NCBI RefSeq assembly: GCF_032118995.1
Contig: NC_092653.1
Location: 7,187,031-7,251,030 of the forward strand
Length of the DNA stretch: 64,000 bases
Direction of reading: 5' to 3'
Source of the DNA: Asterias amurensis
Taxonomy: Eukaryota
How positions within the stretch are numbered: position 1 is the stretch's first letter; every line of letters begins with the position of its first letter. Made by a program: the position numbers and the translations under genes. The notes below the pieces were generated by a model. It did not search any database and had not been told where the DNA came from. It saw nothing but the letters and a program-made list of their open reading frames with translations. This document shows positions 1 through 41,567 of the stretch, in pieces.

Positions 1-3000
1 AACATCTTCATCATCACCAAGGTTGTCGTCCTGAACAAGATTATTCTGATCACTGTTAGCATCACCATCTTCAGATTTAGCTGCCCGACTTCTTCTGTTA
101 AGACCGCCTCTTTTGTTACTTCCTTTCTCTTTCCGATACTCATTTGAACTTTGCAGATTGGTTTTACCACAATCTTTTTTAACCTTCGTTGATTTTGTCC
201 GTTTTCCATCACTCCTCTGCTTACGTGTCTTTAACATTTTTTGCTTGACTTGTAACGATCCTTTCATTTCTGATTGTTTTTCTTTTTTTATTTGTGATTT
301 GCTCTTCTTCAACAGTCTATCGTTGAGATCAGCAGGAGAATCATCTGAACTTCCATAATCTGGGATAGTCAGACTTGTGTCATCGCTGTCAGAGCCACCA
401 ATGTCTTCAGTCTCATCTTTAAGAATATCTCCCTCCTCTCTGTTTTCTTTAACATGGCCATCAAGATTTTCATCATTATCAAGTTTGTCCTCATCAGTAC
501 ATTCCTTTCTTTCAACCTGACGTTCGTCGCTAACATCCAGACGAAAAACTTCATCATCATGATCACTCCCGTCCCTATGATCTTTCTCGTCTCTGGCAGT
601 AGATTCAACTGCCTGACCGCTTGGTTCCTGCTGCTTATCCTTAGAATCTATTTCATGATGGCTAGTTTCAAAACCTGTTTCTTTAAAGGCCTTTGATTCT
701 GCTTGTTTCTCCTTTGCTATCATTTTTTTCTCTGCCTGCTGTTTGAAAATCTTCAACATTTTACCCTTGTCAGCCAGTAACCCTGTGGTGTTCAATCGCT
801 TCTTCGATTTCACCTGTTCGGATTTACTCTCGTCATCATCTAAAACAATATTTGAGCTTACTTGCTTTTGTAAGACGCTTTCTTGACTGCCTGAAGAATT
901 TTGATCTGTATCACTATCAGAACCATTTCCACTACTACTGATATCATTCACCCTCTCACCAATGCTGACCTTCAAATGACCAGGCATGCCATGGCTTTCT
1001 TTAGGGCTGCCAATTAAGCTTATTTCCTCACTACTTGAAAACAGTTCGTCCAGTATTCTTCTTCGATTCTTTCGGGGCGACATTCTCCTGCCATAGACCT
1101 TATTATCAGGTGTATTTCTGTGTTGTCTACCTCTGATCACATCTTCCGGTATTAAATTTTCACTCTGACTGTCATCGGTTATGTCAAACTCATTAGCATC
1201 GCTGTAACAATCACTCTCTGGGTCGTCTTTCAACCTAGACTCAGTTGCTTGATCAAGGATGAAGGGATTTCCATAATCTCCATCATCAAGTTCTTCGCTC
1301 CATTCTTCCCGAGTGTCAATACTAGAAAGAACATCATCTTCATCACACTCACTGGCAGAAGTTCCAACTATGGTGTGGTCATTATCTCCCTTGTCACTGA
1401 TGCTACCTTCTTCAGCACTACTCTCATCATTATCAATGAACTCTTCCACCTCTAAGAGTTCAAGGCTGCAGTCACTGCCACTACCATCTGCAAAAAGATC
1501 TTGATTCTCTTCGTCACTTTCTCGATCACCCAAGCCATCATGGCCTAGAGAAACACTAATGTTAACTTCTTGTGCACTATTCTCATAATTATCGATGTAC
1601 TCTTCAACCTCTATGTGTTCAATGCTGCAGTCACTACCACTACCATCTTCAACAACACCTTGACCCTCTTTGTGATCAACATAGTCAGCACCCTCGCTCC
1701 CACCATCCAGGATACGTCTGTATTGTTTTCTGTTTATCTGCTGAGTGCCAACAAGCATTTCACCATCGTCAATTTTCCGATCGCCCAATCCCTCATCACT
1801 GTCAGAATCATCAGTCATGTTGATAAACCTTTGTGCAGCTGCCCTAGCTCTGCCTACATCCGAATCGCTGTCTCCACTACTCGAGAACAACTCCTGTGGT
1901 ACTCTCTTTCCGATGGGGCGTCTGCCACAATGCCTAGAGAACTTCATAAAATTCAAGGGAATCACTTTCGGTAAGATTTCACCAGGTGCCGGCGGAGGTT
2001 TCATCAGCTGAAGGACAGGAGAGAGACAGTGGGACTTGGGTATGGCGAGTTCTTCGGAGGAGGACTTACTCCAAGAGTCTGTCTGCTTTGTGGAATCGGA
2101 CGACCCTGCAGACTTGATTCTTCTTCGATGACTTTGTCTTCGCAGAAGAGGGGTGGGCTTTTGGGGGGACCGGCTCTGAGTAGATACATTCATTATGGAC
2201 TCAATGAAGCTTTTGAGAGTATCTGAATATTCTGTTTCTTTTCTTGGTGACTGAAAGGGCTTTGAGGTACTTGGTTTCACCAATTGAGTGACAGTAGAGA
2301 GACATTGGGACTTGAGTGTAGCAGCTTCTTCAGAGTCCATCTGCCCCAGTGAATCGGAAGACTCTGAAGACTCGATTCTTCTTCGATGACTTTGTCTTCG
2401 CAGAAGAGGGGTGGGCTTTGGAGGAGACTTGCTACGAGTAGCCTGTACATGCTTTAAAGACTCAAAGAACCGTTTGAGAACATCCGTTTCTTTTCCTGGT
2501 AGCTGGGAGGGCTTTGAAAAGTTCTTGCTATCACTACATACATCCAGTAAAGAATCCATGAAGTTTTTGATTACTGTTACTGGTTCAACTTTTTGGTCCG
2601 AGGGAGTTGTCATTGTTGAGCATCCATCAGGAGGAATTTGGCTCGCAAAGGATGGTGTTTCATGCACTGTCTGAGTTTGGGTTTCATGAAAGTCTGTTTG
2701 ACACGACTGGCTGTGTAAAGATGAGTGGGTTGAGGCCCTTATGTGTTCTGACTCGAGCTTGTCTGGTTTTAACACAACAGGTGAAACCTGGACACCAATG
2801 CTGACATTTCCCAATGTCTGGATGCCCTCGCTTGCTGTAGATGGGATTTCCAATGATGGTGGGCATTTGCATTCTGAGCAAGAACACAACACACATGTTG
2901 GCCCTGCTTCAGCTCCCTGCTGTTTTGGTGTTTCAAAGTCACTGCCATTTTCTACAGGGGCCTTGTTGATGGCAACTTCTTGTTCTGTTTGCACGTAAGG

Positions 3001-4296
3001 AACCTTTGATTGCGTTTGGCAGTGTTTTTCAACAGAAGTTTCATTTGGATTTGATAGTGGTGCGGACAGTTTGATGTCTTGGGACTTTACTGTATGTAAA
3101 TCCTCTTTAGGACTCATTTTTCCCGGAGTGACATCAAGCTCCCCAATACTTTCTCTGTATTTTCGTTTCAGACTGATGCGTCGCCGTCTCTTTTGCTCAT
3201 GACAAGCAATCTTTGCTTTCGCCAGTCTTGCAGAAAGTCTAGATCTTTTTGAAGTTGAAAGCTCTTCAAGTAGATCTGAAAGAGTAATACTTAAACTTGA
3301 ATCAGCTGTCGAGAATATTTGGGGTGTTTGTTGTTGATAAAGCGCTCCAACTCCTTCAACTCCTGGCTGATTTTTAGACTGAACCATGATTTCTGCTTCT
3401 TCCAAAGATGTACCAGATGCCGGGATGTTTTGCTTACACTTTTTTGTCTGGACCTTCGGGGTGCTGACTCGATGTAACCATGACGACTTAGGTGTTTCGA
3501 ACCTATTCAAGTCGGTGCTAGTTCTTTGTGGTTCTGCAAGATGCTCAGTTGACAATACGCCAACAGATGTTGAACTATCCACTGGTGCTGCAGTTTTCCC
3601 AGATTTACTTCTTCCTTTGGTTTTCCTAGAATGAGAAACTGTGGAGTGTCCAGAGCTTTCAAGACCTTTCTTTCTGTGGCTTTTTTTCTTCAGTCTCTTG
3701 GCATTGGTTGGTGCCAATTCTGTCATGACTCGTTTCTGCCCTTTTACGAGAGGATTATCAGGTACTTTGAGTGGATCGAGAGTTGAACTTTCAAATACCT
3801 GCTCTTGATCAGTTTGTTTTGAATTGCGGATAGATTTGACAGAGGCAAAGGAATCCCCTTCAATGATCTCTACGATTTCAGCTGTGCCTTCCTGAGAACT
3901 CACAAGACTCGGCGTTCCCTTTTGAATCAGGCCGCTTTTTCTTCTGTGCCTCCCTCGCCTCTTGATACTCAAGGAATTATCTGCCACAATAACATCTTTG
4001 GACACACTCTTTTCGGTTTGATTGCCATCCCCTGATTGAACTGGCTCATCTATCCCATTAATAAGGCGTCGTCTCTTCAATCTTTTCTTGGGGCTTGGAG
4101 TTGACTGATCTGAGTTTGAGTTTTGACAGTGCCTCAGTGGCGATATACTATGAATCCTCATCAGTCCGTCATCGTCAACGTTTTGCCAAAAGTCTGCGCT
4201 CAAATTCGAAAAGACAGGTTGGCTTTCCCTTGCTGGCTTTGTTGGGGTTTTTAAAACGGTTTGCATTGTTGGAGTGTTTTTTGCGTTGCAAGGCAT
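1..4296 (-). CDS. Partial CDS (3' end off-window) of a very large acidic Ser/Asp/Glu-rich low-complexity protein. The product looks like a nuclear phospho-acidic protein of unknown identity. The frame runs without a stop from the ATG at 4296 to position 1 (>=1432 codons) with no intron needed.
   Basis: Hand reverse-translation in one frame, spot-checked at 16 places, no stop. In-frame TAG upstream at 4417-4419; first ATG at 4296. Basic NLS-like SPKKRLKRRR. Repeated units KPTPLLRRQSHRRRI[EK]S (coding repeats at plus 2100-2160 and 2370-2430). Repeated units GSGSDCS[IL]E..EVEE[YF]IDN (1380-1500 and 1560-1680). Absent from the ORF track, presumably because there is no in-window stop. Upstream 5' exons cannot be excluded. 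Confidence 0.7.
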   Translation of the reverse strand, partial: MPCNAKNTPTMQTVLKTPTKPARESQPVFSNLSADFWQNVDDDGLMRIHSISPLRHCQNSNSDQSTPSPKKRLKRRRLINGIDEPVQSGDGNQTEKSVSKDVIVADNSLSIKRRGRHRRKSGLIQKGTPSLVSSQEGTAEIVEIIEGDSFASVKSIRNSKQTDQEQVFESSTLDPLKVPDNPLVKGQKRVMTELAPTNAKRLKKKSHRKKGLESSGHSTVSHSRKTKGRSKSGKTAAPVDSSTSVGVLSTEHLAEPQRTSTDLNRFETPKSSWLHRVSTPKVQTKKCKQNIPASGTSLEEAEIMVQSKNQPGVEGVGALYQQQTPQIFSTADSSLSITLSDLLEELSTSKRSRLSARLAKAKIACHEQKRRRRISLKRKYRESIGELDVTPGKMSPKEDLHTVKSQDIKLSAPLSNPNETSVEKHCQTQSKVPYVQTEQEVAINKAPVENGSDFETPKQQGAEAGPTCVLCSCSECKCPPSLEIPSTASEGIQTLGNVSIGVQVSPVVLKPDKLESEHIRASTHSSLHSQSCQTDFHETQTQTVHETPSFASQIPPDGCSTMTTPSDQKVEPVTVIKNFMDSLLDVCSDSKNFSKPSQLPGKETDVLKRFFESLKHVQATRSKSPPKPTPLLRRQSHRRRIESSESSDSLGQMDSEEAATLKSQCLSTVTQLVKPSTSKPFQSPRKETEYSDTLKSFIESIMNVSTQSRSPQKPTPLLRRQSHRRRIKSAGSSDSTKQTDSWSKSSSEELAIPKSHCLSPVLQLMKPPPAPGEILPKVIPLNFMKFSRHCGRRPIGKRVPQELFSSSGDSDSDVGRARAAAQRFINMTDDSDSDEGLGDRKIDDGEMLVGTQQINRKQYRRILDGGSEGADYVDHKEGQGVVEDGSGSDCSIEHIEVEEYIDNYENSAQEVNISVSLGHDGLGDRESDEENQDLFADGSGSDCSLELLEVEEFIDNDESSAEEGSISDKGDNDHTIVGTSASECDEDDVLSSIDTREEWSEELDDGDYGNPFILDQATESRLKDDPESDCYSDANEFDITDDSQSENLIPEDVIRGRQHRNTPDNKVYGRRMSPRKNRRRILDELFSSSEEISLIGSPKESHGMPGHLKVSIGERVNDISSSGNGSDSDTDQNSSGSQESVLQKQVSSNIVLDDDESKSEQVKSKKRLNTTGLLADKGKMLKIFKQQAEKKMIAKEKQAESKAFKETGFETSHHEIDSKDKQQEPSGQAVESTARDEKDHRDGSDHDDEVFRLDVSDERQVERKECTDEDKLDNDENLDGHVKENREEGDILKDETEDIGGSDSDDTSLTIPDYGSSDDSPADLNDRLLKKSKSQIKKEKQSEMKGSLQVKQKMLKTRKQRSDGKRTKSTKVKKDCGKTNLQSSNEYRKEKGSNKRGGLNRRSRAAKSEDGDANSDQNNLVQDDNLGDDEDV

Positions 4297-5069
4297 TTTT
4301 TGTAATAATGCAGAGTCGAAATGGTCAAAATTCAAACTGTTCAAACCAAGTGGTTTCTCCACGCAGCACAATATCCCATTCTGTATGATGGTTGACACGG
4401 GCTGGCTGGCACAAGCCTAAACTGAAGCTCAAAGATATTGATTCAATTCTGCACCTAATGAAAAGATAAAACAAATCACACCAATTTAAAACAAAGGCAG
4501 CACTTTTTTTTAAATCCAAACTGATCAAGTGTTCAGCAATCAGTCTAGTCAAACAGAATGAATCAAGGGCTCATGGGTTGGAGAGGTTATTTGTAACACA
4601 CTTGTAAGCCAAATGCTAGTAAAAACATGGATCGAGATCAAAATTCTCTCATGTTGTCTAGTCTCGGATAAAGACCCTCCTTGATACCCAACCATGGCCC
4701 AAGAGGGCGCGCTTACCTTAGTCCGCAATTACAAGGTCTGGGGCCTTTCTCAAAGCTCCGCTTGGGGTCCGGCTCAGGCTTAGGCTCCGCGTGTTGTGTA
4801 CGCAGCTTGCATTTAACCTTCATTTAATCCACTCAGCAACTTCTGGCAAAGCATCTGCAACTTCTGAAGCATCAGTTAGATCATGATCAGTAACTTTTAT
4901 GATGCAGATTGTTGCAGACGGTTTTTCAAAAAAAGGAAAAGATTTTGATATCAGACGTGCTGGGGCCAGGGATATGGAGTGGATGGACCGATTCCATGAC
5001 TAGAGTAGAGTTACCAGCGAGGGGGGGACTTTTAAAGTTTTGTCATCATAAAAAAATGAGTTATAGCAA

Positions 5070-5436
5070 TCGCACAACAACGGTAAATAGCATTCTCCAA
5101 AGGCCCACACTTCGTGTATCACAACTTATATATAAAATAACAAACCTGTGAAAATTTAGGCTCAATCGGTAATCGGAGTCGAAAGAAAATCACAGGAAAA
5201 CCCACCCTTGTTTCCGCACGTTTCGCCGTGTCATGACATGTGTTTAAAACAAATCCATAATTCTCTTTATCGAGAATTGATAATTGTTTAAATGTTTTCT
5301 CAAAAAGTAAAGCATTTCATGGATTAATATTTCAAGGGAAGTCTTTCACCATTACCTTCTGTAAACCCTGTCAATTATTTGTAAATCTGTGAACTTTTAA
5401 TTTTTGTTCTGTTCCGAAAGTGTCCACTGGCTTTAA
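5070..5436. mobile_element. MITE family E copy (5' TIR truncated)
   Basis: ..cccacacttcgtgtatcacaactt...ccgaaagtgtccactggctttaaa. Confidence 0.75.
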
Positions 5437-6875: not shown

Positions 6876-7798
6876 CTGAGAAGCACCCGGATATCCCTAA
6901 CAACTACATCTATAGGCTACAGCTGAGCATCTGTCTTCCCCTGGAATACGACAAAGATAACTTGTCTGCGCTTCAGATCAAAATTGGCTGGAAGCAGACG
7001 CGCTACTCCTTCATTCTTTCACACTTGTGAACTAACAAAACAACACAACACTTCTTGAAACTCTTCATAAAATAAATATAAATTGGTTTTTATTCAAACT
7101 ACATGTTTGTAGTAATTTAGTACAATGGTATAGTTGGGTCAGTGGGCATAAATCTGTACAACAAATAATATTCACAAATTAAGGCAAACTAAAGTTCTTT
7201 TGATTCTACTAGAAGGGACAAACCGAAGCTGTCTGGATTTCGAAACATGTATATCAATGCAACGTCAAAAAAACATATGTACAGGAGAGTTATTGCATAT
7301 AAAAAATTAATCGCATTTAGTGTTAGTCTCAGAAAAAGTGTCAAAAACTTTCACTTTGTGACGAGATGAATTTATTTCACATCACACCAATACTATAACT
7401 TTGTCAGACAGTTTTAGGGCAAGTGTTGGAAAGAGCTGCATGCTTGTGAACTTTAAAAGACAATACCGGGGGTGAAATAAGTCTATCAACCAATAAATAT
7501 ATGCGCAGCCACAACAACAACAAATTAAAAAACCAATCCATTATAATACGCTATTATGCATTCATCCATTACAACAGCAGATGGTGCTCAAAAGTTGACA
7601 CTTAAAAACTCAATAGACAAAAGGTTTGGATGACATATCATAATGATGAAAGAATAGTACATAAATGCACTGTTTATGATGTAGGCCATGTTGAGTTTGA
7701 ATAGTGAATACCACATGACCAACAATATTCCAATCAAATGACAAGGATCTAGAGCCAATCATGGCTCTGCTTACCGTAAGCAAAGGATCAGCGCTTAA

Positions 7799-8180
7799 AG
7801 GAACACGTTGCCTTGGATCGGTCGAGTTGGTCTTTGAAAAGCGTTTGTAACCGTTTGTTATAAAATGCATATGGGTAGAAAGATGTTGTAAAAGTAGAAT
7901 ACAATGATCCACACAAACATGCCTCGAAATTGCGTGGTTTTCCTTTTACCTCGTCGACTAACACGTCGGCCATTTATGGGGGTCAAAATTTTGACTCCCA
8001 TAAATGGCCGACCATGTTAGTTCGCACAGTAGAAGGAAAACCACGCAATTTCGAGGCAAACTTGTGTGGATCATTGTATTCTACTTTTAAAACATCTTTC
8101 CAACCATATGCATTTTATAAAAAACGGTTACAAACGCTTTTGTTTTGACCAACTCGTCCGATCTAAGGCAACGTGTTCCT
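7799..8180. mobile_element. Foldback (hairpin) MITE, 382 bp, near-perfect inverted halves, TTAA target-site duplication (7795-7798 / 8181-8184). Copy 1, nested inside another MITE.
   Basis: Starts AGGAACACGTTGCCTTGGATCGGTCGAGTTGGTC and ends with the reverse complement. The centre is the palindrome catttatgggggtcaaaattttgactcccataaatg. It interrupts a CGGTAAGCAGAGCCATGAAATT-family MITE (7752-7798 / 8181-8352). Confidence 0.9.
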
Positions 8181-8352
8181 TTAAGTAAACCTGTTCACAG
8201 GTTATCAAGTAATTGTTGCTTGTGCGCATCGATCTCCACATCTCCCCTCCGCATTATTCGCTTACACAGCTAGCACAAATATGATGCTTGCACAGTAAGC
8301 AAGAATGGTGATCGTAAGCGCAGATAGGGAGAGCCATGAATTTGGGCCCTGC
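8181..8352. mobile_element. MITE family B copy, right part. The left part is at 7752-7798. It is split by the foldback-MITE insertion.
   Basis: ..cacaggttatcaag..gcagatagggagagccatgaatttgggccctg. The left part gagccaatcatggctctgcttaccgtaagcaaaggatcagcgc ends at the TTAA. Confidence 0.75.
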
Positions 8353-8973
8353 TGGGGTGTTGTATAAACGTAAAATACAAGTTCACGTAAAATACAAAAT
8401 GGTAGATATCTGTTGACTAAACAAATTGATCAGACCTAAACGCAATTCAAGAAAATAAATAAACGTATGGTTTCTTACCCCCAAAAGCGTGCATAATTAA
8501 GAGATAAATAAGCTTTTTACAAACACTTTGTATATACACAAATTTGTATAGTTAATTATGGTTGAAAAAATTCAACAAAAGTACTATAATTTAAAGGCAG
8601 GTCTATTTGCTAACTCACTGTCTAAAGAATTTTTCTGGAAACTATAAAGTAAACCATCAAATTCGTCTTCTTCTGTTAAAACATTATCTAAGAACTTTCG
8701 TTGGAAGCCTATTTTGTTTTCAAAAATATATAAGAACATTTTATTTAAGTTTGATTTCATAACTTTCTTGTTTAGGACTGAAAAAAAATGTCATACACTA
8801 CTTTATATGACTGAACACTTCTTTTTTTAATGGACGGCAACAAAATCATAAAATTACTGAACACAGATTTTTCAAAGAAACCATCGTAATTTTGATTAGC
8901 AGAAACTGGTTACCAACTAAATTTCATAAACTTTACATTTTTGCAACTGGTGCCCCCTCAATGTTTTGCTTAA

Positions 8974-9300
8974 AGGCAGTGGACACTATTGGTAATTGCT
9001 CAAAATAATTACTATCATAATCATAAAACCTTTCTTGATTACGAGTAATGGGGAGAGGTTGATAGTATAAAACATTGTGAGAAACAGCTCCCTCTGACAT
9101 TCTGAAGTGAAGTAGTTTTCGAGAAAGAAGTTATTTCCACGAATTTGATTTTGAGACCTCAGATTTAGAATTTGAGGTCTCGAAATCAATCATCTAGCAG
9201 CACACAACTCAGTGTTACCATGGTGTGAAAAGGGTGCTTTTTTCTTTCATTAATATCTTGCGAACCTTTTTTTTTGTACAGAAAGTGTCCAACGGCTTTA
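8974..9300. mobile_element. Family-D-related MITE, diverged/composite. One end has the family-D TIR; the other end (9280-9300) carries a family-E-type TIR (gaaagtgtccaacggctttaa).
   Basis: TTAAAGGCAGTGGACACTATTGGTAATTGCTCAAAATAATTAC at 8970-9010. Internal tttcgagacctcagatttagaatttgaggtctcgaaatc palindrome. Confidence 0.6.
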
Positions 9301-9865
9301 ACAGCTTTATTAAAATTAGGACCAGGACTTGCTCATCCAGAGGTTGCGATACATAAAGTTGCCCCAAACCAATTGACATAGCAACTGTCTTGATAGTCTG
9401 AGAAATTAATTTTTAAGTAGTGACTTGTGACTTAGCAAGTCCTTGTTCAAGACATTACTCAAATACAGTAATGGCTTAGCTTTAGCTGGCTGTTTGGTGT
9501 ATTCATTGAAAATTAGAGGTTCAGAATGAAATTGCCCTATTTAAAGTATCTTACATTTAGTAACTACACCTTCGATGTGCCGTCTCTAAAAAATAAAAGA
9601 GCTGATTGTTTAACCAACTAAAACTTTTACCCAAAAATTTAATTAATTTTTAACTACCTATATGAACAAGCTTCGTCGAGGATTTGTTCATAAAAGCACC
9701 AATGGTTTTAAAGCACCAATAAATTAGTTTAACAAGATGAGCTACAACATGTTATTAAGTAATGCTGAATGAATGCTGTCTGATCTGACAAATCGATTAA
9801 AAACAATAAACCAGGGAGGAAATTTGGTGTGCATAAAAATTCCACAAAAACTGGCCTGTGGGCCT

Positions 9866-10177
9866 GGGTTCCCCCCATATAGTTATATATAAGAGCTAGA
9901 GGGCGCACTGGCCTATATACGCGCTCCGGCATGCGCGCAGGCAGCCATTTTCTAAGTTGACAAAACTGGCATCTCACAGCGTGTGTTTGTGCGGCCATTT
10001 TGTAAGTTGAACAAACAGCATCGCGTGAGCGTTCAATAAAAAAAACCTCAAACATGTATTTCATATTCAACGCGCGTGCAGAATGATGTGCTTGTCATCT
10101 TGCGGTCCCGTGGCGTTTGTGCACGAAGCATCACTCGTGCGCCCTCTAGTTCTTATATATAACTCTATGGTTCCCCC
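9866..10177. mobile_element. Non-autonomous element with ~41-bp terminal inverted repeats (GGGGGAACCATAGAGTTATATATAAGAACTAGAGGGCGCAC) and two internal direct repeats (gccattttNtaagttgaNcaaaNNNgcatc)
   Basis: The left end gggttccccccatatagttatatataagagctagagggcgcactgg matches the reverse complement of the right end. Confidence 0.75.
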
Positions 10178-10465
10178 TTATTCTAAACCCAGAACCTTTG
10201 TAATGTTGTAACATTCAGGAGGTTTAAAGATTCAGTACATGACCAGAAATACAAAGATACGAGTTTCTTTCTCCCTTTGATGACTGTTTTACTTCTTGCA
10301 AGAAAAGGTTAAGGCTCAACGAGGCTTTGAGGAAATCCTTGAAATCAGGAAAAATCCTTAGAAATATATGCCAGGATAACAGCCCTCTCTATTGAAGTGT
10401 TCGCATCATTTGGTGCTTGATTTGTGGCAAGTTGTTTTACTGTGTACTGGCTTAGAGAGCTTGCC

Positions 10466-10692
10466 ATACTTGCGAAAACCCAATTTCATGTCTCTGCTTA
10501 CCGTAAGCAAAGAATCTGCACTTATGGAAGCAGGGAATTCTATATTTCACAGGTTAGCAGGGATTTTTTACATTACTAGGCATTATACACTTAAAGAGCT
10601 AGTGCAGAAATTCTGCGCTTGCCCTGTAAGCAGAGAATGGTGATCGTTTAGCTCAGAATATGGCGGTAAGCAGAGCCATGAAATTTTCCCCT
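10466..10692. mobile_element. MITE family B (TIR CCCAATTTCATGTCTCTGCTTACCG ... CGGTAAGCAGAGCCATGAAATTTTCCC), ~227 bp
   Basis: Perfect inverted termini. An internal ..cacaggttagcag.. module is shared with family A. Confidence 0.85.
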
Positions 10693-11418
10693 GATGCCTT
10701 GCTACTCTTTCTACAAGCAAAATTACCAGAGAAATAAGGGCTAGAGTCCCAAACATGTGTCCATGAATTAGCAAATGTGTGAATACAAAGTACTTCAGAA
10801 TTCGCTGCGAAACCAAGTTATTATTGAAATGAATAAACAGAAAAGCACCCTTTCAATGTCACAACATTCTCATCATCAACTTTAACCTCACTCTGAGAGG
10901 TCAAGTCACAAATGCTAAAACAACCATTTCCTTCATTTTCTGGTAAAACTTTGTTACGCTTATATAAGAGATTACTTTTTCAACAAAATAAAAAAAATTG
11001 TATGGAACAAGAACAAAGTATGAATTTAAGTCAATGCAGTAAAAAAGAAAACAAAAACAAAAACCAGTACCATTTTCTCCACAAGCAATTACAAAAAATA
11101 CTTAAGTAAAACACTAAGTATGCCGATGTATGGAAGAGGGGAGGGATGATCCTAAATGCTTCAACCGAGGTCCACAAATAAAAGCGTGGTCTCTACAAGG
11201 TTAAGATGGTCGGGCAAAATGAAGACCACGCCCGACCACGTCCCAACCACGCCCAGTATAAGAGTCAACTGCTTCTGTTTCTCCAACACACCAAGATGCC
11301 TCAGTCATCTTTCAACTGTTACACAGTCACATTTTTTACACATTATAACAAAAATAAATACCTGCTCTATTTTTCAAACTTTGCAGGAAACTCTCTGAAC
11401 TTTCATAGCAGACACTTT

Positions 11419-11469
11419 TTAAAGCTCTTCAAAGAAGGCAACCCTTGCTTTAGTTGAACCAGATTTTAT
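11419..11469 (-). CDS. NF2: NF2 exon 15, terminal ([16 protein letters not shown])
   Basis: Acceptor ttttcag|ATA, TAA stop. The RVAFFEEL C-terminus is diagnostic of merlin. Confidence 0.85.
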   Translation of the reverse strand: MKSGSTKARVAFFEEL

Positions 11470-14400
11470 CTGAAAAGCAAATAATAAAAAATTAAATTAA
11501 ACATGTTGATATAAACACTAATACTTTTGTTTTGGGGATGTAATATACGACACACTTCGCTCGGTGACGAAACCTGAACCAAAGGTGCTGGGATGGGCTG
11601 AAACTCTGGACCCAAGCTCTGGTGTTGTCAGCAGGAGAGTGTGGGTTCGAATCCCAGTCAGGACAAAACAGTATTGCTTAGCAGAAACAGGGTACCAGCC
11701 AAAATCACATTAGTTTTGCATTATTGAGGCTGGTGCCCAACTCAATTTCTGCCTAGCAAATAAACTTGTAAAAAAGTAATAACTTTGCGAAATTGGGCTC
11801 AGGTAGCTTCATGATGGGATATTCAAAGAAGTCGATAACACAATTCAAAATAAACTTACCCTGACGAGAGTAATGTACTTGGTCTCTCCCCTGTCGATCA
11901 GCTCATTGTGTATTCGATCAAACTCCGTCTCCTTCTCCTCGACCTTCATGACTTCAATCTCCGACTTGAGCTCGTTCAGCTGCAACTGAAGATGTCTGCT
12001 CTTCTCCAGGTAGTCCACCCTGCAGGACGAGACGATCAGACACTGATAATAATTATAATAATAATAGCGCGCATATCCATCACTAAGTGACGCTCAAGGC
12101 GCTTTAACATACAGTATTTTCCTGCAAGGTATGTGCGACTACATAGCGTCCCGTGCCTGGGTGGTTAAGAGCACCGCCCTCAAGCTCAGGAAATAACCCA
12201 CTCCACACACGCAACTGCTGTGGTGCCCTGTGTTTTTGCAAAGTTCCAATACAAATTAGAGTTTTCCTCATAGAAGTGCCCCTAACAAGAGGAAAATGTA
12301 TGTGCCCCTTCAAGAATGGAAACATTACTAGACAATATAATCCTGATAAAATAGAATAAACTGCTGAAAACTGCTTCCCAACCAAATTATGGTACAAATG
12401 CAAACAAAAGTTAGTGGCCTGACGTTTTAAACTAAAGTGAAGGTACACGTTTGGTAATTACTCAAAACAAATATTAACTTAAAAACTGACTTGGTAATGA
12501 GCATTGGAGAGCTGTTGATGGTATAAAAGATTGTGAGAAACGGCTCCCTGTGAAGTAGCATAGATAAAAGAGGTAATTTCTCACTCAAATAACAAAAGAC
12601 TTCTAGCCAGAAGTCTTTTATTCCTTTCTGAAAGCACACAAATTTGTCCAACAAGGGTGTTTTTTCTTTCATCATTTTCTCGCAAATTCGATGACCAATT
12701 TAGCTCAAATTTTCACAGGCTTGGTATTTTATGCTTATGTTGGGATACACCAAGTGAGAAGACTGGTCTTTGAAAATTACCAAACGTGTACCTTCCTTTT
12801 AACCCTAGCAGAGTTATCAACCCTAGTAGTCTTTCTCTGAGGCTAAATGACAACAGAACACATGAATAGGTATAAGTGGAAAAACATAAATAAAGAGAGA
12901 GAGAGAGATTCAGAAAGCACACAGCAAAACACAATCGAAACCTATATACCTTTCTTTTTCAATTTCTTTGGATAGTTTCTCCACATCCCCATCTGTCATC
13001 AGTTCATATGAGTTGCTCTCGCTCTCGATCGCAAAGTCGCCGTCAAGTTGTAGCTTTTCTAGCTCGGAGCTTGTTATAACATGTGCGGACGTGAACTGTT
13101 TGAAAAATAGACACAACATCAGGATGAGTACACATAGTATGAGAAATCATTGCAACGAGTATGTTACTGGAAGAATAATGGCACACCATTGGTTCAATTT
13201 GGAGAGTACATAAATTTGTATTTTATAAGAATTTTCGTTGTAGACCTGAAACTTTTTTGAACAAAAAGTTCTACTAGTCTTGAGAATAGATTAAACCACT
13301 AAATGTGATTGGTGAGTTATTGCATATCGTGCATTAATTTAATGAATCTGGGTATGGGTACAATATTTGTTGCTTAAAAAGTGGCACACTACAGCGACAA
13401 CGAGAACGCTAACAATAATGATGCAAAGAGAACGCATTCTATTGGTTGAAATGCTCCAAGCAGAATACGCCCAAGCTCATTCATAACCAATCGAGGGCGA
13501 TCATTTTTATCGTTTTCATTTTCGTCCTGTATGACCGGGCTTTTACCCTCCCCCTCTATTAGGTCTTCATTGTGTTCTGGGAATCTCAGAAATTCTTAAA
13601 GGAACATTACAGAATTGGTAAGAAAACAAAATCGTGAAGATCACAGATTTACATCAAACTTACACGGTCGAATGATGATGATAGTAAAAAACATCCCTTG
13701 AAATATTTCTGCCTGAAATGCCATATTTGATGAAAAATAAGTAATTTAACTTTGCGTTTGGAGTTTATCGCTCAGTGAGCGTTTTATTCATTCTTATTTT
13801 GGCATCAAAGCAATGCAAAATTTGTAATCGGTTTTTTACTCTATTCTCATGACCCAGATGGCCGATCGATCTCAAACTTCTACAGGTTTGTCAGTTTGTG
13901 TATATGGTGGATTACATAAGTGCTTACAATGCCAGCAACTGTTTTGTTAGCAAAAACCAACTCTGTAATGTTCCTTTAAGAGGATTTGAGGGGAGTACTT
14001 CTGAACAAGAGGACAAGTTAAAGTATGTGAGCATTTTGGGAGGACACCCTGTATAGGCAACAACTGTTGGCCAATGGTAATTAGCATGGCTAATAGACCC
14101 TTCGCATGCGTACAGACCCTATTGATTGGTGCACTCAATTGCATCTGCGTCACGCCGACATGCGCTGCACTCAAAACGTTAGTGAGCATGGGCTATGTGC
14201 TATTTACATATTCCATGGGAAGGGTCTTTTGTCTAAAAGTAGTGCTCACAGAAGCATAGGGGTAGTTTAGGAAAAGTACTCACATCTAGTAGTGGTAATT
14301 TAGTGACTTGGATAAGTTTCTCCTTTGCATTTTTCTCTGCCTCTCTGGCTCGGACCAGTTGCTCTTTTAACCTCTCTGCCTCCATAGCTCTGAAGAAAGA

Positions 14401-17400
14401 ATTTTTTTATTATCACAAATTGTAGATCACAACAAGCCACAATTAGAACCAGTAAAATAAAAACCATGACATAGTTCCCAAAGAACAAAATATACATAGC
14501 AAAGTAGATATATATACACATTGTGTTACCCCGCAGTACCTCAAAAACTACATATTGAATGTTTTTCTTTTGTTGAACAGAAAAAAAATTAATTTGACTT
14601 GTAAAAAGCTAGAATTTTAGCGACGCGATGATGGGTGCCGTTTTTTCCATTCAACGCAAAAAAAATTGCTTTTTGCTTTCGCATGAATTATGAACCAGAA
14701 CCATTTATTTGTGTACTGTTTACCTTCTGTCTGATTCCTCGGCCAACCTTGTTGCAATCATCTCAGCTTCATGAGCTTTCATCTCCATCATTCGCCTCTC
14801 TTCTTCTGTCTATAGTAGGGCGGCAAACAGATATAACAATTAAGACAATGAACACCTTTCAGAGGACATTTTCTAACATTATCAAGAGCGAGTTTTGGCA
14901 ACCCTAACCAGAAACATGTTTGAGCTTTGGTAATTGGACGAGCGTTTTCGCGTGTTCGTTTGAACCGCTGTTCTGACCAAACCGTAACGGACTTGTTGGC
15001 TCGGTTAGGCTTGGTTTTAAAACTGGGTCTTCAATGGCTATTCACACCAGGGCCCAATTTCATAGCGCTGCTTAACAGTAAGTAAATTTTCGTGCTTACT
15101 TTAGCAGAAAAATTTGCTAGGGTGCAGGCGTATTTCACAGGTTAGCAGAAAAATTGGGTGGCCATATTGCGTGTTTACCATGGATTTGCATTGTGACATC
15201 ATTTATTTTAGTGTGATAAGCACCAAAAGGTTAGCATGCCTTACCGAGTGCTTACGGTTAGCAGCGCTATGAAATGGAAATCGCACAGTAAGCACAAAAT
15301 CGGCCGCTAAGCAGTGCTATGAAATTGGGCCCTGGCAGTGTCTAGGCAGTGCAATAATAGCCTGTACCCTGATGCGGTATATCTCAGACTTAGCTTGGTG
15401 AGCCTTCTGCGCAAGGAGCATCGCTTCCTCTTAAGGAAGCCTTAAACAGCCAATTAAAACGGGCAGTGTCTAGGCAGTGCGATAAAGGACCAATCATTCT
15501 CACCTTGATAGCCTGTACCCTGATGCGGTTTATCTCAGACTCAGCTTGGTTAGCCTTCTGCGCAAGGAGCATCGCTTCCTCTTAAGGAAGTCTTAAACAG
15601 CCAATTAAAACCGGCAGTGTCTAGGCAGTGCGATAAAGGACCAATCATTCTCACCTTGATAGCTTGTACCCTGATGCGGTTTATCTCAGACTCAGCTTGG
15701 TTAGCCTTCTGTGCAAGGAGCATCGCTTCCTCCTCAGCTACCTGTGCCTTCTCCCCTAACAACTCTGCCGTCTCCTCCGACCTCATCTGTAAACCGAAGG
15801 AACAAACCAAAAATCCTTCTACTGACTGATCGTTCACTGTGGTTTTGAATGACCCATTTACTTATTTTTTAATTCAATGCTAAAATACTGTATGTAATGT
15901 GTATGTAATAGGGATGATAACGACCTTGATTACTGTTGTACACTGGTTTGTATCCTGACTTTTCATGTTTGTCATTTGTCTGTCCATCCATAGGCCGGGG
16001 GAAAAATTCTGTTGCTTCACCCCGAACCTAGACGTTGCCATTTGTTAAAAGTGCACTTTTAAATCAATTTTCTGTACTGTTAATTTTGATTATAACAGTT
16101 TTTACTATTCTGTGATTTATGGCAGCATTTAAATAAATGCAAACCTAAGCTATGCCAGTGTGCCTTGCGATCTGCAAATAGTCATGTGCATCCCCATGCC
16201 AGTGACAGAAGATGGTGAAAGTAAAACATTTTGGGGATCACTGTGGTCCCACAGACATTGCTTAATTGCGTCAAGGAAATAAATGTGCACACTCTTATGG
16301 GTCCCAATGTTGGAAGTTGTGCATTGATTACAGAATGTAAGGAATATATCTCACCAGGGCATCATGAGCGAGTCTGGCCTCGTCCCTGAAGTGGACCAAC
16401 TGTTTCTCCATGTCCTCTTTATCTCTCTCTGCTTGCTCCCGTAACTGTCTCTCTCTCATCAGCTTATGTCTTTCAATCTGATCGAGAAGATCATGAAAGG
16501 TTACTTTTTAAGTTTCTAGGTTCAGTGGAGTTCATACTTTCCTGCAAATGCGAATGCGAAGCAAATGTTGACGTCACAAATTCGCAACGAATACTTCGCA
16601 GCAGTTCAACTCTGTTCAACTCACTTGCGAGTATCGCTGCGAAAAGAAGGTTGTGATGTCAAATTCTTGTCAAATTCGCATCGCATTCTCATTCACAGGA
16701 AGTATGAACTGGGCTTAAATCTCTTCGAAGGACAAGAGAGGGTGATTTAGTGTTCCTGGTAAACTAGATCATTTTCTGCTTGGTGTTGCATTTCAATCTT
16801 CTTTATCAATCTTTTTTTTTCAGTTTGGGGCTTAAGTAAACCCGATGGGGATGGGGGTGGGAGGGGGGGGGGTTGTAAGGTTACTCTCAGCACATGACCA
16901 ACCCTGTTAATCAATGTTACTCACCAATTTTCATCAAATACTGAAAAAACTTTCAATTCGTTTATTTCAAATCAATTTCATACTTTTCCAAATCAAAATA
17001 AACATGGGTCAATCAATCAGATCAGTTTGTGGTGATTTTTCTTGAGAAAAAAAAGAGTTTAAAGGAAAATAACTGTTTTAAAGAATAATAGCTCTCTGCA
17101 CTAATGTGGATGACGTCACTTTTGCTCAAAATACCTGGCTATCAGACAAAAATTCCACAACTTTAAGAAATCATCGCATCATTGACAAGACAAACTTCTC
17201 TAGAAGTGTATAAAACTTGGTACATGTACGCACATGTATCTTCATGAAATTTGAGACGTTTATCTGAGATCCGGGTAATTGGCCTCTGTTTTTAGCATTA
17301 GTACGAGAGCTATCGACGAGACTTACATGTCTTTTGGCTTTCTCTTCTTTGGCTTGTGCTTTCATCTGTTGGACCTCCATCGTGTCTGCCCTCCTCCTCT

Positions 17401-20400: not shown

Positions 20401-23400
20401 AACAGCATAAGACGCCAATAAAACTGAGGCCTCCGGAGGGCAGTACACCTCCTCATTCAAGATCTGCTGCTTGACTTGAAGGAAGAATAGATGCTGGGTG
20501 ATCTCCTGGATCAACTCTTCGCTCACTTCCTCCGGATAAAACTTGGCTGCAAACAAGAACGGCATCGGGGACGTCTTAGGGATGCCTTGCTCTTGCACCT
20601 ATTGAGTGGGGAACAAAATTAGATTATAAATTGGTTTTTACCCATTACATGTACACCGATGTGTTTTAGCACCTTATACTCAGTACTTTCCTGAGTTTTG
20701 TGAAAAAATCACAGGCATGTTAATCGGGTGGGATTCGAACCCAAGACCCTTGCAATTCTAGAGCAGTGTCTTACCAACCAACTACACCAACGAGAATGCC
20801 TGAACTGCCTCTAGCTATTGGGCAATCTTGATGGTCTAGTTGGTAAGACACTGCTCTAGAATTGCAAAGGTCGCGGGATTGAACGCCTGTAATTTGTTTT
20901 CATAGAGCTCGCAGAAAGTATGAAGTATACAGTGCTAACACACATCGGTGTAAGGGTAAAAAGACAAATTTAAAATTAGATCAGTTTATCTTTTATTCAT
21001 AGCTTCTCGAGCGTTCAACATCATTGTTACACTTAAGTTACAAATAGAAAAAAGATCCATGCAATTTACAATTTTGCAATTGACTATTGGCATTGATATT
21101 TCTGACACAAGTATTTCTATGGTCCTCAGTGCCACGCCATCTACATGTAGTTTTCTAGCTGGAAAGGGAAAATCTGCACAAAAATATTGCAAATAGTTAC
21201 ACAAAAGTTCAACTTCAGTGTGGGACTGTCTATATGAGCGCATAGCTCACACAACCGATGTCAGTATGGCAGCCCACAGTCATGGCATTTTCTATAAATT
21301 TTCCAATGGAGGTGCCCTTTGCAAATAAAAATGGCCTTGCACTTTTAAAAATGAAATTCCAGGCCTGGAGAATATATCCGTTATTATCCTACTGCATGCA
21401 GGATAAACTCACTTTCTTATCCATCTTAAGCCAGCTGATGTATCCCTTGTGATCGATGAACCGCAGACCAAAGTACCAAGTTTCCCGTAACCCAATGGTT
21501 CTGGCCACCAGGTCAAATAATTGTCGGCCAGTTGCTTTCCACTTTGAAAACAGAAAAAAAACGAATATTCTTTAATCGTTGCAACAAAAACCTCTCAGGA
21601 ATTTGAGGGTTACTTTTACAATGTGTCTCACTGGGAAAAACTTGATATAATGAGAAGAATTTCAAAATGATTGCTGGGTTAAAATTTTGTCACATTTAGC
21701 TCAGGGCTTGAATTTTAGGGTAAAATAGGGCTAGTAGTAGCTCTAAAGCTTTACCGGACAAGAATCTAACTTACAAGAAAATAATCTTAACTTTGAGAAA
21801 GAACATTCTACACAATTTTACATGAAAATTGTTTTATTTGAGCAAGTGCTAAGAGAAGATTGATCTCACTTTGTCTTGTGGGTAAGTAGGCCTACAGTAC
21901 ACATAGGTCAATGTTTTGAAACTCAATAGACCTGATACTAAACAGACTCGAAAGCCAAATTTGAGCACAATTCATGTTTTTTAATTACACAGAAAAAAAC
22001 AAGAAGCTGGAACTGTCCAGTCATGATTTTACTTGTCATGCAAAAAATTTACCCAAGCACTGATCTCATTGTTTTGACATCCAGTGTTCAAGTGCAGTGG
22101 TGCCTGAGTTCCAGTCTCACTGGAAAACATTTATCAAGTCACCAGTTTTACTTCTTTATACCGCTTGTCAAAACCATGCCATGGAAAACAATGTTATCCA
22201 TGGAAAAAAATACCTCATGGACTTAACATAATAAATAACTGATACTAATATAGGCCTACTGTACCATCATTTTTTATCAGTGATTGTTTTGCTAAATAAA
22301 AGATGTTGCTGGTGAACTGTGGTTGCCGTTTAGGAAAAAAATTCAACCAAGTTCAATGGTGTTCACTTAGACAAAACAAAATATCAAACTGGTTGCAACC
22401 TTTACCCTGTGCACACACAAGATACAATGTTACTCAGCAGATAGCAATTTATTGAGTCTACAATGAAAGGATTTAATGTAAATTGTGGAATAGTGTCGTG
22501 GCCGAGCGGTTAAGAGCACCAAATATAAACTCCGAAATTTCTGATCAGCAGAGTGTGGGTTCGAATCCCCAGCCATGGCCATGACTGACACTTGTGTCCT
22601 TAATTAAAAGCAAGACACTTAACCATTGCTTCGTCCTTCGGATGGGACGTAAAGCTGTTGGTCACATGTGTTGTGTAAACGCATGCAAAAGACCCCAGTG
22701 CACGGGTTACCTCCCTCTAATTTTGGAGGGAGGTAGTGTTGATTTGTGTAATTCATAGACGTTAGTAAACCATTGTTTGTTATTGTATGAGAAAGGATGG
22801 CTTTTGCCAGCTTGGTGTTAACATGAATACATTGTATATTATCCCCTTTTGGGAGTTAGCCGAGTTCCCTTGGTTGGAAGGGAAGATCATTTAAACAGAC
22901 AAACATCAAACCAAATGAAAAGAAGAAAAAAACATTTCAGTTCATGGAATCATGGGAAAAGTTTCCGTATGGCGCCACCACTTTTTCATTCGAAATAAAA
23001 TAATATAGTATCTAATTTACCTGATTGATATCCCTTTTTGTAAAAATGAGTGAAAAAGTGGTGGTGCCATAGGGAAAGTTATCCGAATCATGTCATAAGA
23101 GCACCGAACTCAAGCTCTGATGCTTCTGTTCAGCATAGTGTTGGTTCGTGACAATTGTGTCCCTGAGCAAGACACTTAACTGTAATTGCTTCTCTCCACC
23201 CAGGGGTAAATTGGTACCTGTGAGGGCAGAGATGGTTCTTGTGAATGTGATTGATTTAGCCGAGTAGCGCATATTAATGTTGCACAGGCTGCATACTCCC
23301 CACCAGGGAGCTGAGATGGTTCAAGGAGTGAGTTAAGGCCCAGTGACCAGCGGGGTAATAATGTGAAGCGCTTTGGGACGCCCTCCGGGTGTGAAAAGCG

Positions 23401-30000: not shown

Positions 30001-33000
30001 AAAGCCATTTTGATTTTGCAAAGGGCACATCCATCGGAAAATGTTTAAGTCAAGAATTTTTTTTGAAGGGGCACCATGGCCAAGACCTGGACAACTGTGG
30101 GCCATGGCCTAGCTCTGTGGCCTCTGTGAGATTCGAGGCCTGCCCTGTGGTGCCAAAAGCGCTTTATACCAACTGCATATGATTATTATTATTATTTCCT
30201 CTCTTACCTTATGGAAATCATCAAAGGCAACTCCAGCCACAGCCCCTCTGATGCGGGAGGCGATTGCCTTGCAGGCATCACCGATGAAGTCAGGCACACT
30301 GAAGAGTTTAGCAGCATCTTCCGGAGAGCTTTCCTTCTTAACATCAAGATGCCTGGAACACAAGAAAATATTTGAGGGCTGTTTATGATGGCAGTCGTTT
30401 TTTTCAAAATGCAATGAAATTTGTTTTAAATGAATGCCTAGAATTCAACCCACTTGTTTTTGTTTTTGATGCACCAGCATGAAAATGATTTGCATTTGAC
30501 ATGGACAACTGACTATTTTCTGGAAGGTTATGAAAGTAAACTTTATTTTTCCTTTTTATATCATTGTAATTGCGATGACTTTAGTAAAACGCAAAAACAG
30601 TGGCTTGGGACCTCCCTCATCGCATGTGTGAAAGCGATGATGAAGTGAAACCTGCCCCTGGTCTACTCATCTTGTAAAATACTTTTAACTGAACACTCCA
30701 TCAAGCTCAAGTATACCATGCAATTAGAAAGTTCAAAAATAAGAACTTTCAGAACAGAATATGAAAAAAACCTACCAGTTGTATGACAGCTGAAGTTGAA
30801 GGCGGGCGTGGTCAGATGTCTCGATAGTGATGATATCGGTGCAGAAATCAGGGCCGAGGAGAAGGCACAGTGACCTGATCATGTTGGGGCGCTTCGGCTT
30901 CCCTCCGGACAGACTCAACTGGGTGAACTGCTCATCGGGGCCGAGCATGACTAACTCGGGACCAAACACAACCCTGAAAAGAGCCAAGGAACGAGAAACA
31001 TTACTAGTCTATGGTAAAAGTGAGCAAAACAATTAGATCTGTATGTGGGGGTGTTTAAACAGTTGATAATGACCAGCTGGAGTTGTTTATAACAGGTTGC
31101 TATCATACACGTTTGTGCGGGTTAGCCCACAACCTTGTTTCTATGGGTGATCAATCTCGCCGTGCTATTTTAGCCCATGATTACGAGGATGCATACTGCG
31201 CGCACAAATGCATATCTGAAAAGTGTTTCAGTCATAAAAATGCAACACATGAACAGAGCTCAAGGACGTCGGAAAACGGGTAAGCTTTACAGAGTTTCTT
31301 ACTTCATAACGCCGTTAAATCAAAAGCGCATTCATGAATGGGAATAAAAGAGTAGTGACTCGTTCTTAAACTGCCATTTAAAACCTTGTGATATCACACG
31401 GCCATGACCATACCGGTTTCAAACGGCAGTCACTACCCTTTTATTTCCTTAATTTTGCTTTTGAAAAAAAAAAATCCCCCTACCTTGCTTTCTTCTCCTT
31501 GTAGTCATAGATCTGCATGGCAGCGTTGTGAGGCACACGGAATGTAACAACCCTAGTCTTCTCTCTCCGTTTTTCACGTTTATCACCATTTGGCACCTCG
31601 TATGCACGGTCCGCCAAAGGGTCCTTCCTGTTCATCAGGAGTTCCTCCACAGCGGGGGGAAGCTCCTTTTGCCAGAGCTCCTCATCTTGGTTCAGCATGT
31701 AGGTCTCACCTGTGATGGCTCGCACCTTTTGGGAGAGAAAAAATTTTGTCATAAAAGAGATTAACTGATGTCCCAAATAAACGGTAAGCAGAAATTTGCT
31801 AAGCAGTTGTTTTAAGTTTGAATAAATAATTTTCTACATGGAAAAAAAAAATAAAGAATAAAAATAGCTGTATTTTCTGCTTAAAAGCTCTATGAAATTG
31901 GACCCCCGTAGAAAAAAAAAATGATTTCTTACCTTACCCGTCTTGGTATCTCGGACATAGATACCTTCATTCTCATCCAGCGGGATGGCACACCTCTGGG
32001 CAATCACCTCCACCTCTACTGGGGGGACGTACTCCTTGGGCCCACGGATCATCCACTTGTCACCTGGCTTACGGTTGGTATCCTGTTGTACGCAAACAAA
32101 CAATGCTAAGAGTTTATCCTAAGAAGGACTTTACAAAAGGGTGGCGCATCTTCTAGAATAAGGGTCATTTTGTGTCAAATCACCCGATGGGTTAAACCCT
32201 ACCCTCTTCAAATTTACTCAAATTTGGTTTATGGGGTAATCGTGGCTCAACAAGCTCAAATTTCAAATGCAAAATTTTTCTGCTTGAAAAAAAAAACAAA
32301 TGAACTGAAACACCATGGGTTTTTTTCAAAACCAGAGAAAAATATGAATTGAAATGTCATTATGTTTTCTTCAACTTACTGCATCTGTGTCCTTGAAGGC
32401 CTCTTGGGAGCGAAGCATAAGACCCTCATCCTCTCCCAAGACGTACACATCCTGAATTCCCTTCTCAAGATGCTCCCCTGGACGCAGGAAGAAAGACTTC
32501 TCACCCTGTAGTTAAGAGGGGAGAGAGGTGGGAATCGTCCATTATAAGATAAGACTTAAACGCACTGGACACTATTGGTAATTACTCAAAATAATTGTTA
32601 GCATACAAACTTACTCGGTAAAGAGGTATGGAGAGCTGTTGATAGTATAAAACATCGCCAGAATTGGATCCCTGTGAAGTTTTTTGTACGTAGCTCTACT
32701 GTTGGTTGTCCCCCCTTTTTGGAAAATATCTTCAGTGGCGTGTCATCAGGGCCGAGCGAATAAGAGCACCGTACACAAAGCTCAGGTTTTCTGTTCAGCA
32801 GAGTGTGGGTTCGAGAGTCGTGACATTTATAAGCCCGCCCTTGAACCATTATTGCTGCGTCCTTTGAGTGGGACGTAAAGCCGTTGGTTCCACGTGTTGT
32901 GTAATGCACGTAAAAGTACCCAGTGCACTTATCAGAAAGAGAAGGTGTTCCTGGTCTGATCGGCTGCATAATGCACCACAGCAAACACCATTACATGATG

Positions 33001-36904: not shown

Positions 36905-37230
36905 TGTGAATAGTCAGCCTGAAAACAGAAAGAGTAACAATAATAAATACAAACATTTATAAAGCGCATCCTATCCAATGGTTAGAATTAGAAGGCGCGG
37001 CACTGCCTCGTTTGGATCTGTCAGCCATTGTGATTAGTCAGTCTGAAAACAGAAAGAGTCACAATAATAAATACATGAATATTTATAAAGCGCATTCTTT
37101 ATCCAATGGGTAGCGGCACTGCCTCGTTTGAACCTGTCAGCCATTGTGAATAGTCAGACTAAAAACAGAAAGAGCTGAACAATAATTAATACAAATATTT
37201 ATAAAGCCGCATATTATCCAATGGTTAGAA
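36877..37230. repeat. Tandem triplication (period ~118 bp) of the MVP first-exon start (first ~35 nt of CDS including the ATG), the 5'UTR and the TATA/CCAAT promoter unit
   Basis: Three near-identical units, each containing ccattgtga(a/t)tagtcag(c/t)ctgaaaacagaaagag..aataaatac..atttataaagcgcat..tatccaatgg + cggcactgcctcg(c/t)ttgga(c/t)ctgtcagccattgtg. Starts at about 36877, 36994 and 37113. Confidence 0.85.
36950..36985 (-). promoter_or_regulatory. MVP: Putative MVP core promoter: TATA-like (minus-strand ctttataaa, 36956-36963) and CCAAT box (36975-36979), about 50-75 bp upstream of the ATG. The same unit is repeated twice more upstream.
   Basis: Motifs read directly from the sequence. Their position relative to the ATG at 36904 is appropriate for a short 5'UTR. 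Confidence 0.4.
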
Positions 37231-41537: not shown

Positions 41538-41567
41538 TTAAAAGCCTTCAGAGGCTATCATTTAGGC

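Follow-up and report, generated by a model that had tools for sequence, protein, structure and literature searches.

The window, by which we mean the whole 64-kb stretch of DNA analysed here (approximately 39% G+C), is eukaryotic and contains exons of several host genes interspersed with short repeats (Table 1). An exon of the tocopherol-cyclase-like gene gave no protein match above 57% identity. A further reading frame, uninterrupted for 1472 codons or more, lies on the minus strand at positions 1–4416 and runs off the start of the window; it is of low complexity, rich in Ser, Asp, Glu and Lys, includes an internal duplication of approximately 85 residues and has no match in Pfam. Two tandem arrays were noted, one with three 151-bp units at 15357–15809 (97% and 61% identity to the first unit) and one with three units of approximately 86 bp, spaced at 116–124 bp, at 36866–37191. 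Heads of tRNA-like SINEs (GGCCGAGCGGTTAAGAGCAC...GGGTTCGA) are found at 22500–22564, 23085–23149 and 32750–32814, none of which is called by ARAGORN. Along with them there is an abundant repeat beginning TTAAAGGCAGTGGACACTATTGGTAATT, and further positions noted for these repeats are 8970–9100, 12432–12556, 32556–32680, 41430–41506, 46116–46252 and 58226–58362. The abundant repeat starts with TTAA followed by AGG, and may represent either the tail of a SINE or one more element of Kolobok type.

Table 1. Positions of the repeats and host genes in the window
Feature	Position	Strand	Description
MITE copy 1	7799–8180	+	382 bp; TTAA at 7795–7798 and 8181–8184; nested in family-B MITE
MITE copy 2	40089–40471	+	383 bp; TTAA at 40085–40088 and 40472–40475
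MITE copy 3	43998–44379	-	382 bp; TTAA at 43994–43997 and 44380–44383
MITE copy 4	52317–52701	+	385 bp; TTAA at 52313–52316 and 52702–52705
Terminal inverted repeat (TIR) AGGAACACGTTGCCTT	7799–7814	+	16 nt; inverted partner at 8165–8180; starts AGGRR; 5'-AG...CT-3' fits RR/YY
Central palindrome GTCGGCCATTTATGGGGGTCAAAATTTTGACTCCCATAAATGGCCGAC	7965–8012		48 nt; symmetry centre; homologous to the subterminal palindrome of a 965-bp relative
Family-B MITE, left part	7755–7798	+	Interrupted by copy 1; TIR-like CATGGCTCTGCTTACCGTAAGCA
Family-B MITE, right part	8185–8345	+	Ends ...GAGAGCCATGAATTT; coordinates approximate
Second MITE	13596–13979	+	Non-palindromic, unrelated to copies 1–4; TTAA-AGGAACATTACAGAATTGG...CTCTGTAATGTTCCT-TTAA; 376 bp between the TTAAs
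Major vault protein (MVP) exons	~28.4–35.0 kb	-	Intron-split
Tocopherol-cyclase-like gene	41.6–43.2 kb	-	Exons 41571–42242 and 42510–43205; ATG at 43166; Pfam match
Trypsin-like exon	54.5–55.0 kb		
Malate dehydrogenase exon	62.1–62.4 kb		

Four copies of a palindromic element

A reading of the same DNA made from the sequence alone (the sequence-only reading) had placed four elements, more than 90% identical, at the positions given for copies 1–4, and this was borne out, with identities of 96.6–98.7% once copy 3 is inverted. Relative to copy 1, identity is 97.4% for copy 2, 96.6% for copy 4 and 98.7% for copy 3, the last only after reverse complementation; as written, copy 3 is 87.8% identical to copy 1. 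Judged by the asymmetries between the arms, copy 3 is inverted with respect to the other three, an orientation that is masked by the palindromic symmetry of the element. The four copies lie 2–8 substitutions from their subfamily consensus, a sign of recent activity. CpG decay accounts for 4 of the 20 private substitutions, an enrichment that is weak and not informative; the left TIR of copy 4 carries one G>A change, which is at a CpG.

Each copy was also described as a near-perfect inverted duplication. The palindromic layout with central symmetry holds, but the arms are only 86–89% complementary (Watson–Crick pairs over 195 arm positions in the window copies), so the duplication is imperfect; alignment of each copy with its own reverse complement likewise gives approximately 87% identity. 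The mismatches between the arms fall in a few blocks that are common to all four window copies, and were therefore already present in the master copy. The proposed hairpin of approximately 190 bp agrees with a strong predicted fold: as single-stranded DNA, copy 1 has a predicted folding energy of -181.6 kcal/mol, compared with -41.5 +/- 4.6 kcal/mol for shuffled sequences (z = -30.7).

Copies 2 and 3 flank the tocopherol-cyclase-like gene (40089–44379) in opposite orientation, copy 2 approximately 1.1 kb away from the final exon that is visible and copy 3 approximately 0.8 kb upstream of the ATG, where the promoter is likely to lie. As the two ends of each MITE are identical, copies 2 and 3 might in principle function together as a composite transposon.

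Element ends and target site

Every window copy has the consensus layout TTAA-AGGAACACGTTGCC...GGCAACGTGTTCCT-TTAA. The TTAA that the sequence-only reading had reported on both sides of each copy is present at eight of eight flanks, and the DNA outside it is unrelated between copies. With TTAA at 0.7% of window positions, the probability of four independent TTAA targets by chance is approximately 2e-9. When up to 2 mismatches are allowed, the 14-mer AGGAACACGTTGCC occurs in the window only at the eight element ends, against 0.32 occurrences expected.

Long inverted arms able to fold back are also a feature of the Drosophila Foldback (FB) elements, in which the arms consist of tandem subrepeats and the flanks are 9-bp duplications. 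Membership of the FB family was rejected on both counts, with no tandem subrepeats found in the arms of copy 1 (7700–8300 checked) and flanks that are 4-bp TTAA.

Copy 1 sits approximately 40 bp inside a MITE of a different family, designated family B, which has the inverted ends AATTTCATGGCTCTGCTTACC/GGTAAGCAGAGCCATGAAATT (TIR-like CATGGCTCTGCTTACC.../...GGTAAGCAGAGCCATG). When copy 1 and one TTAA are removed, the flanks align without gaps to the family-B copies at 10479–10696 and approximately 60321–60540, whereas retaining two TTAAs or none requires a 4-bp indel in the alignment. The nested insertion proposed by the sequence-only reading is thus upheld by the restored alignment. Its further statement that an intact family-B copy displays the uninterrupted site was somewhat generous, since the family-B copies are only 71–90% similar and the two uninterrupted ones read TTAT and TTAC, not TTAA, at the insertion site.

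Related copies in public assemblies

Nine further copies were found in public contigs of marine or metagenome origin, of which seven are in ERZ21849167 and ERZ21849173, one is in ERZ23498486 (all ENA) and one, L026, is in a JGI metagenome. The eight ENA copies are on contigs behind several of the matches to a protein search with one pseudo-ORF of the element, and L026 came from a scan with an 18-mer of the element end. That scan returned 17 loci, 12 of which were discarded as chance matches, mostly on bacterial-looking contigs (e.g. from human-gut metagenomes). A partial, degenerate fragment with no intact ends (L010, JGI sample 3300045300) was left out of the copy count, which stands at 13 or more sequenced copies in the window and public contigs together. 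Two internal pseudo-ORFs, checked for exact matches in an assembly index, gave none, nor did a 23-mer end pattern in metagenome and viral contigs, and a literature search with sequence strings of the element returned only an unrelated primer.

Both ends are intact in six of these nine copies and the left end in eight. L004, L005, L008 and L028 have TTAA on both sides. The same is true of L006, in which the right TTAA stands beside a mutated last triplet, and of L026, an internally deleted 216-bp derivative in which the right TTAA follows one extra T. L007 has TTAG on the left and TTAA on the right, and the two copies truncated at the 3' end, L009 and L003, have TTAA and TGAA, respectively, on the left. 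Copies lacking TTAA, which the sequence-only reading had named as grounds for refutation, were looked for, and every intact end among the nine proved to adjoin TTAA or a one-base variant of it.

The copies fall into subfamilies, comprising the four window copies, L008 with L005, L004 with L006 and L007, and singletons. Divergence is 0.3–3.8% within and 2–10% between subfamilies, a pattern that, on these alignments, is what successive MITE bursts usually leave behind. The diagnostic bases of the window subfamily are absent from all of the ENA copies. The only orthologous contig found, ERZ1764477:k141_11850895, is 90.6% identical in DNA to window positions 32095–35686 (3.6 kb) and encodes an MVP exon with 100% protein identity; by sequence, its source is either a related taxon or a divergent haplotype. 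Because the diagnostic bases are absent and the orthologous contig is only 90.6% identical, the public contigs with copies of the element probably belong to a close relative and not to the host genome itself. Two of these contigs have other features of note. L005 carries an intact-looking Ty3/gypsy polyprotein ORF at 9469–13503 (1344 aa; RVT_1, RNase H and integrase), approximately 700 bp from its MITE copy, and L007 carries a coding-looking tandem repeat at 2960–3920, a minisatellite in which both strands have several open frames (units of WAFWYKPPVAA.GILVQATCG...).

Proposed assignment to the Kolobok superfamily

A TTAA target is common to two superfamilies, piggyBac and Kolobok, the latter defined by a TTAA-specific 4-bp duplication and 5'-RR...YY-3' termini (Kapitonov and Jurka; summarised in PMC9587614). 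The T2-MITEs of Xenopus, presumed to be non-autonomous Kolobok elements, have a TTAA target and an AGGRR motif in the TIR, and the full-length Xenopus Kolobok elements listed with them start with AG in 10 of 10 cases and with AGG in 8 of 10, e.g. AGGACATGTCAACCCC (PMC6004289). The ends of the foldback element, TTAA-AGGAA...TTCCT-TTAA, fit both the RR/YY rule of Kolobok and the AGGRR motif of the T2-MITEs exactly. All four window copies have 5'-AG...CT-3' termini, as do the relatives whose ends are intact; in L006 and L028, the terminal triplet on the right has a single-base change.

The sequence-only reading had taken TTAA as the hallmark of piggyBac, and this label could not be retained. That a piggyBac-superfamily transposase excises the MITE and inserts it at TTAA would agree with the TTAA on both sides of intact copies, since no TTAA-specific superfamily is better known than piggyBac, whose TIRs vary beyond the first bases (PMC5381638). 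Among 157 piggyBac-like elements, however, the first base of the TIR is a highly conserved C, within the motif C[C/A/T][C/A/T], and excision requires a G at the 3' terminus (PMC5381638). The foldback element starts with AGG and ends with CCT, so that its first three positions all lie outside this motif and the terminal G is missing. The RR/YY discriminator between the TTAA superfamilies likewise points away from piggyBac. No piggyBac-like ORF lies within the window, and no partner element with a piggyBac transposase (DDE_Tnp_1_7) and matching TIRs turned up there or in the related contigs. Mobilisation by piggyBac is consequently regarded as quite unlikely, and because the ends are of the Kolobok type, the autonomous partner that the sequence-only reading had proposed to look for in piggyBac is better looked for among Kolobok transposases.

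In formal terms, the observed sites would also allow for a 2-bp TA duplication around an element with true ends AAGG...CCTT, as would be left by a TA-duplicating, Tc1/mariner/pogo-like transposon with a T-TA-A target preference. Because TTAA is itself palindromic, filled and empty sites agree with either notation, and the empty site is unable to separate the two. A TA duplication would nevertheless mean that, at nearly every intact end, an additional T and A lie invariantly beyond the duplicated bases, and the pairing of TTAA with AGGRR is the described signature of a different superfamily. The termini of the element are, presumably, also unlike those of Tc1/mariner/pogo transposons, and we consider this origin very improbable. 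By end signature and target site alone, the element would be filed as a Kolobok/T2-like MITE.

Searches for TTAAAGGRR gave 13 sites in the window against 4.2 expected, 10 of which are the ends of five elements. The two sites beyond those of the four foldback copies bound the second MITE in Table 1, which has the TIR AGGAACATTACAGARTTGG and shares the end signature TTAA-AGGAACA with the foldback element. A degenerate copy of this second family also lies next to the foldback copy in L028 (5484–5780). On the basis of these ends, the second MITE probably uses the same type of transposase, and two unrelated MITE families with TTAA-AGGAACA ends would be the expected product of a resident Kolobok-type transposase, lending independent support to the assignment. 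Partial relatives of the second MITE were noted at 5296–5396, 37848–37946, 48532–48632, 50377–50480 and 52966–53077.

Neither the window nor approximately 110 kb of related contigs yielded a transposase ORF, the ten largest window ORFs having been compared with Pfam and the remaining ORFs down to 115 aa, there and in related loci, inspected by eye only. The ten largest ORFs matched MVP, malate dehydrogenase, trypsin, tocopherol cyclase or nothing in Pfam, and no window ORF exceeds 232 aa except the 1472-aa, low-complexity, host-like ORF described above.

Coding potential and conservation of the hairpin

The mirrored pseudo-ORFs that had been seen on both strands of the element are present, and are by-products of the palindrome. 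Those inside the element do not exceed approximately 70 aa and are generated by its symmetry. A protein search with one of them returned 103 clusters from public assemblies (P0129–P0231), none of which has a Pfam domain. A protein-coding reading of the mirrored ORFs was rejected on both grounds. The element is thus short, non-coding, bounded by TIRs, flanked by TTAA, multi-copy and homogeneous, the features by which MITEs are recognised.

Given the extreme stability of the predicted hairpin, the copies might instead be dispersed functional hairpin-RNA genes (precursors of miRNAs or hpRNAs) kept for their structure, and not a selfish transposon. Palindromic MITEs are known to yield miRNAs, as in the case of Made1 and mir-548 (PMC1784062), and the element gives weak, generic matches to plant and animal miRNA hairpin models. 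The best of the Rfam matches, however, scores 41.6 bits against a gathering threshold of 130; no Rfam family reached its gathering score, and no tRNA genes were found, in the window. Among nine full-length copies, 46 of the 195 arm pairs vary, and all of the changes are one-sided, with none compensatory. The TIRs, the TTAA flanks, the deletion derivative L026 and the nested insertion are, furthermore, features of a transposon, and hairpin-RNA genes are considered very improbable as an explanation. Arm pairing ranges from 86% to 92% by subfamily. Because compensatory changes are absent, selection on the hairpin was rejected; as far as these alignments go, the symmetry of the transposon is inherited and decaying, not maintained, with no detectable selection on pairing. 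Read-through transcripts of the MITE would form a dsRNA hairpin of approximately 190 bp, which, by analogy with Made1 and mir-548 (PMC1784062), could plausibly feed siRNA pathways.

A longer relative and the origin of the palindrome

In addition to the deletion derivative, the 18-mer scan identified four contigs in the NCBI WGS sets JACSEB, JACSEG and JACSEJ that carry a related element. Two of these, L018 (1149–2113, JACSEG) and L014 (243–1206, JACSEB), contain a 965-bp, non-palindromic, non-coding element with 98.8% mutual identity, and the other two (L023 and L024) contain only its left end. The identity between the L018 and L014 copies implies recent activity in another taxon. In L018, the 965-bp element is bounded by TTAA and has the 16-nt TIR AGGAACACGTTGCCTT of the foldback MITE. 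It also contains a short ATG-initiated frame ending at GTAAG (L018 approximately 1511–1570), speculatively a remnant of a first transposase exon.

The left end of the 965-bp element is unrelated to the foldback MITE, and its last 206 bp are approximately 75% identical to both MITE arms. These 206 bp open with a local 48-bp palindrome, GTCCGCCATTTAGTGGAGTCAAAATTTTGACTCTACAAAATGGCGGAC (element positions 760–807; L018 1908–1955), which aligns with the centre of the MITE, and the homology between the two elements stops exactly at the inner edge of this palindrome. Because the TIR is shared, the 206 bp are homologous to both arms and the palindrome corresponds to the MITE centre, the foldback MITE probably consists of one transposon end duplicated in inverted orientation, with the subterminal palindrome as the join. 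Its clustered arm mismatches would fit two already-diverged parent copies as well as fold-back synthesis.

Discussion

The element is best explained, with a probability that we place at roughly 0.7, as a non-autonomous cut-and-paste DNA transposon of a metazoan, probably a marine one: a MITE mobilised by Kolobok that arose by inverted duplication of one end. The enzyme that mobilises it in trans would be a DDE transposase of the Kolobok superfamily, encoded at another genomic locus, recognising AGGRR-type ends and duplicating TTAA on integration, as has been proposed for the T2-MITEs of Xenopus. The right-end module of a longer parent, approximately 190 bp in length, would have been duplicated in inverted orientation to give a palindrome over the whole length of the element. 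The join at the 42–48-bp subterminal palindrome may date from gap repair, through fold-back or template-switch synthesis, or from recombination between the palindromes of two inverted copies, and the clustering of arm mismatches in blocks would fit the recombination route. The predicted result is an element with two equivalent transposase-binding ends, whose arms would subsequently drift apart one side at a time as a hairpin without detectable selection.

Like the Xenopus T2-MITEs (Xmix/T2-A1, T2-C and others; PMC6004289), the foldback element is short and non-coding, combines TTAA with AGGRR (here AGGAA), forms subfamilies of young, similar copies and has no transposase of its own. The T2-MITEs have short TIRs and an interior that is unique or consists of tandem repeats, whereas the foldback element is a whole-length palindrome of one end present twice, and the likeness is one of cis signature. 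With Kolobok transposons it has in common the TTAA target and 5'-RR...YY-3' termini, Xenopus Kolobok TIRs such as AGGACATGTCAACCCC likewise starting with AGGA. Kolobok membership is defined by a THAP/DDE transposase, and the element described here is known from its cis signature. MITEs derived from piggyBac are similarly short, non-autonomous and flanked by TTAA, but theirs start with C and end with G, whereas the foldback element starts with A and ends with T. The human element Made1, derived from Hsmar1 and the source of mir-548, offers a parallel in layout, as it consists of two joined inverted terminal repeats and folds into a hairpin over its whole length (PMC1784062); it differs in being an 80-bp Tc1/mariner element with a TA target and documented small RNAs, where the element described here is 382 bp in length with a TTAA target.

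The 42–48-bp palindrome could also be thought of as a conserved functional module of this Kolobok-type lineage, such as a site for transposase binding or hairpin formation, that repeatedly seeds fold-back synthesis and so gives rise to palindromic MITEs, the hairpin transcripts of which would then yield siRNAs that police the family. The basis of this idea is only the coincidence of the MITE centre with a palindrome in the longer relative, and on that footing we think it unlikely.

That a multi-copy, non-coding foldback MITE belongs to established MITE biology, as the sequence-only reading had anticipated, is in keeping with these results: this is an ordinary transposon with a corrected superfamily label, and Repbase or Dfam may already contain it. 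What is added here is the corrected superfamily, a second co-resident family and an origin from one end nucleated by a palindrome, all of which leave established MITE biology unchanged. For annotation, the lesson is that TTAA flanks alone do not mean piggyBac, and that the first bases of the element separate C...G from RR...YY termini; genome masking and hunts for an autonomous partner should use Kolobok. Public metagenome gene catalogues contain approximately 100 "proteins" that are no more than this non-coding MITE in translation; they are the product of eukaryote DNA that was gene-called as prokaryotic, and constitute contamination or noise worth recognising in such catalogues. With respect to the origin of palindromic MITEs, the 965-bp relative would provide a worked example of how a single transposon end, with a subterminal palindrome already in place, can give rise to an element that is palindromic over its whole length.
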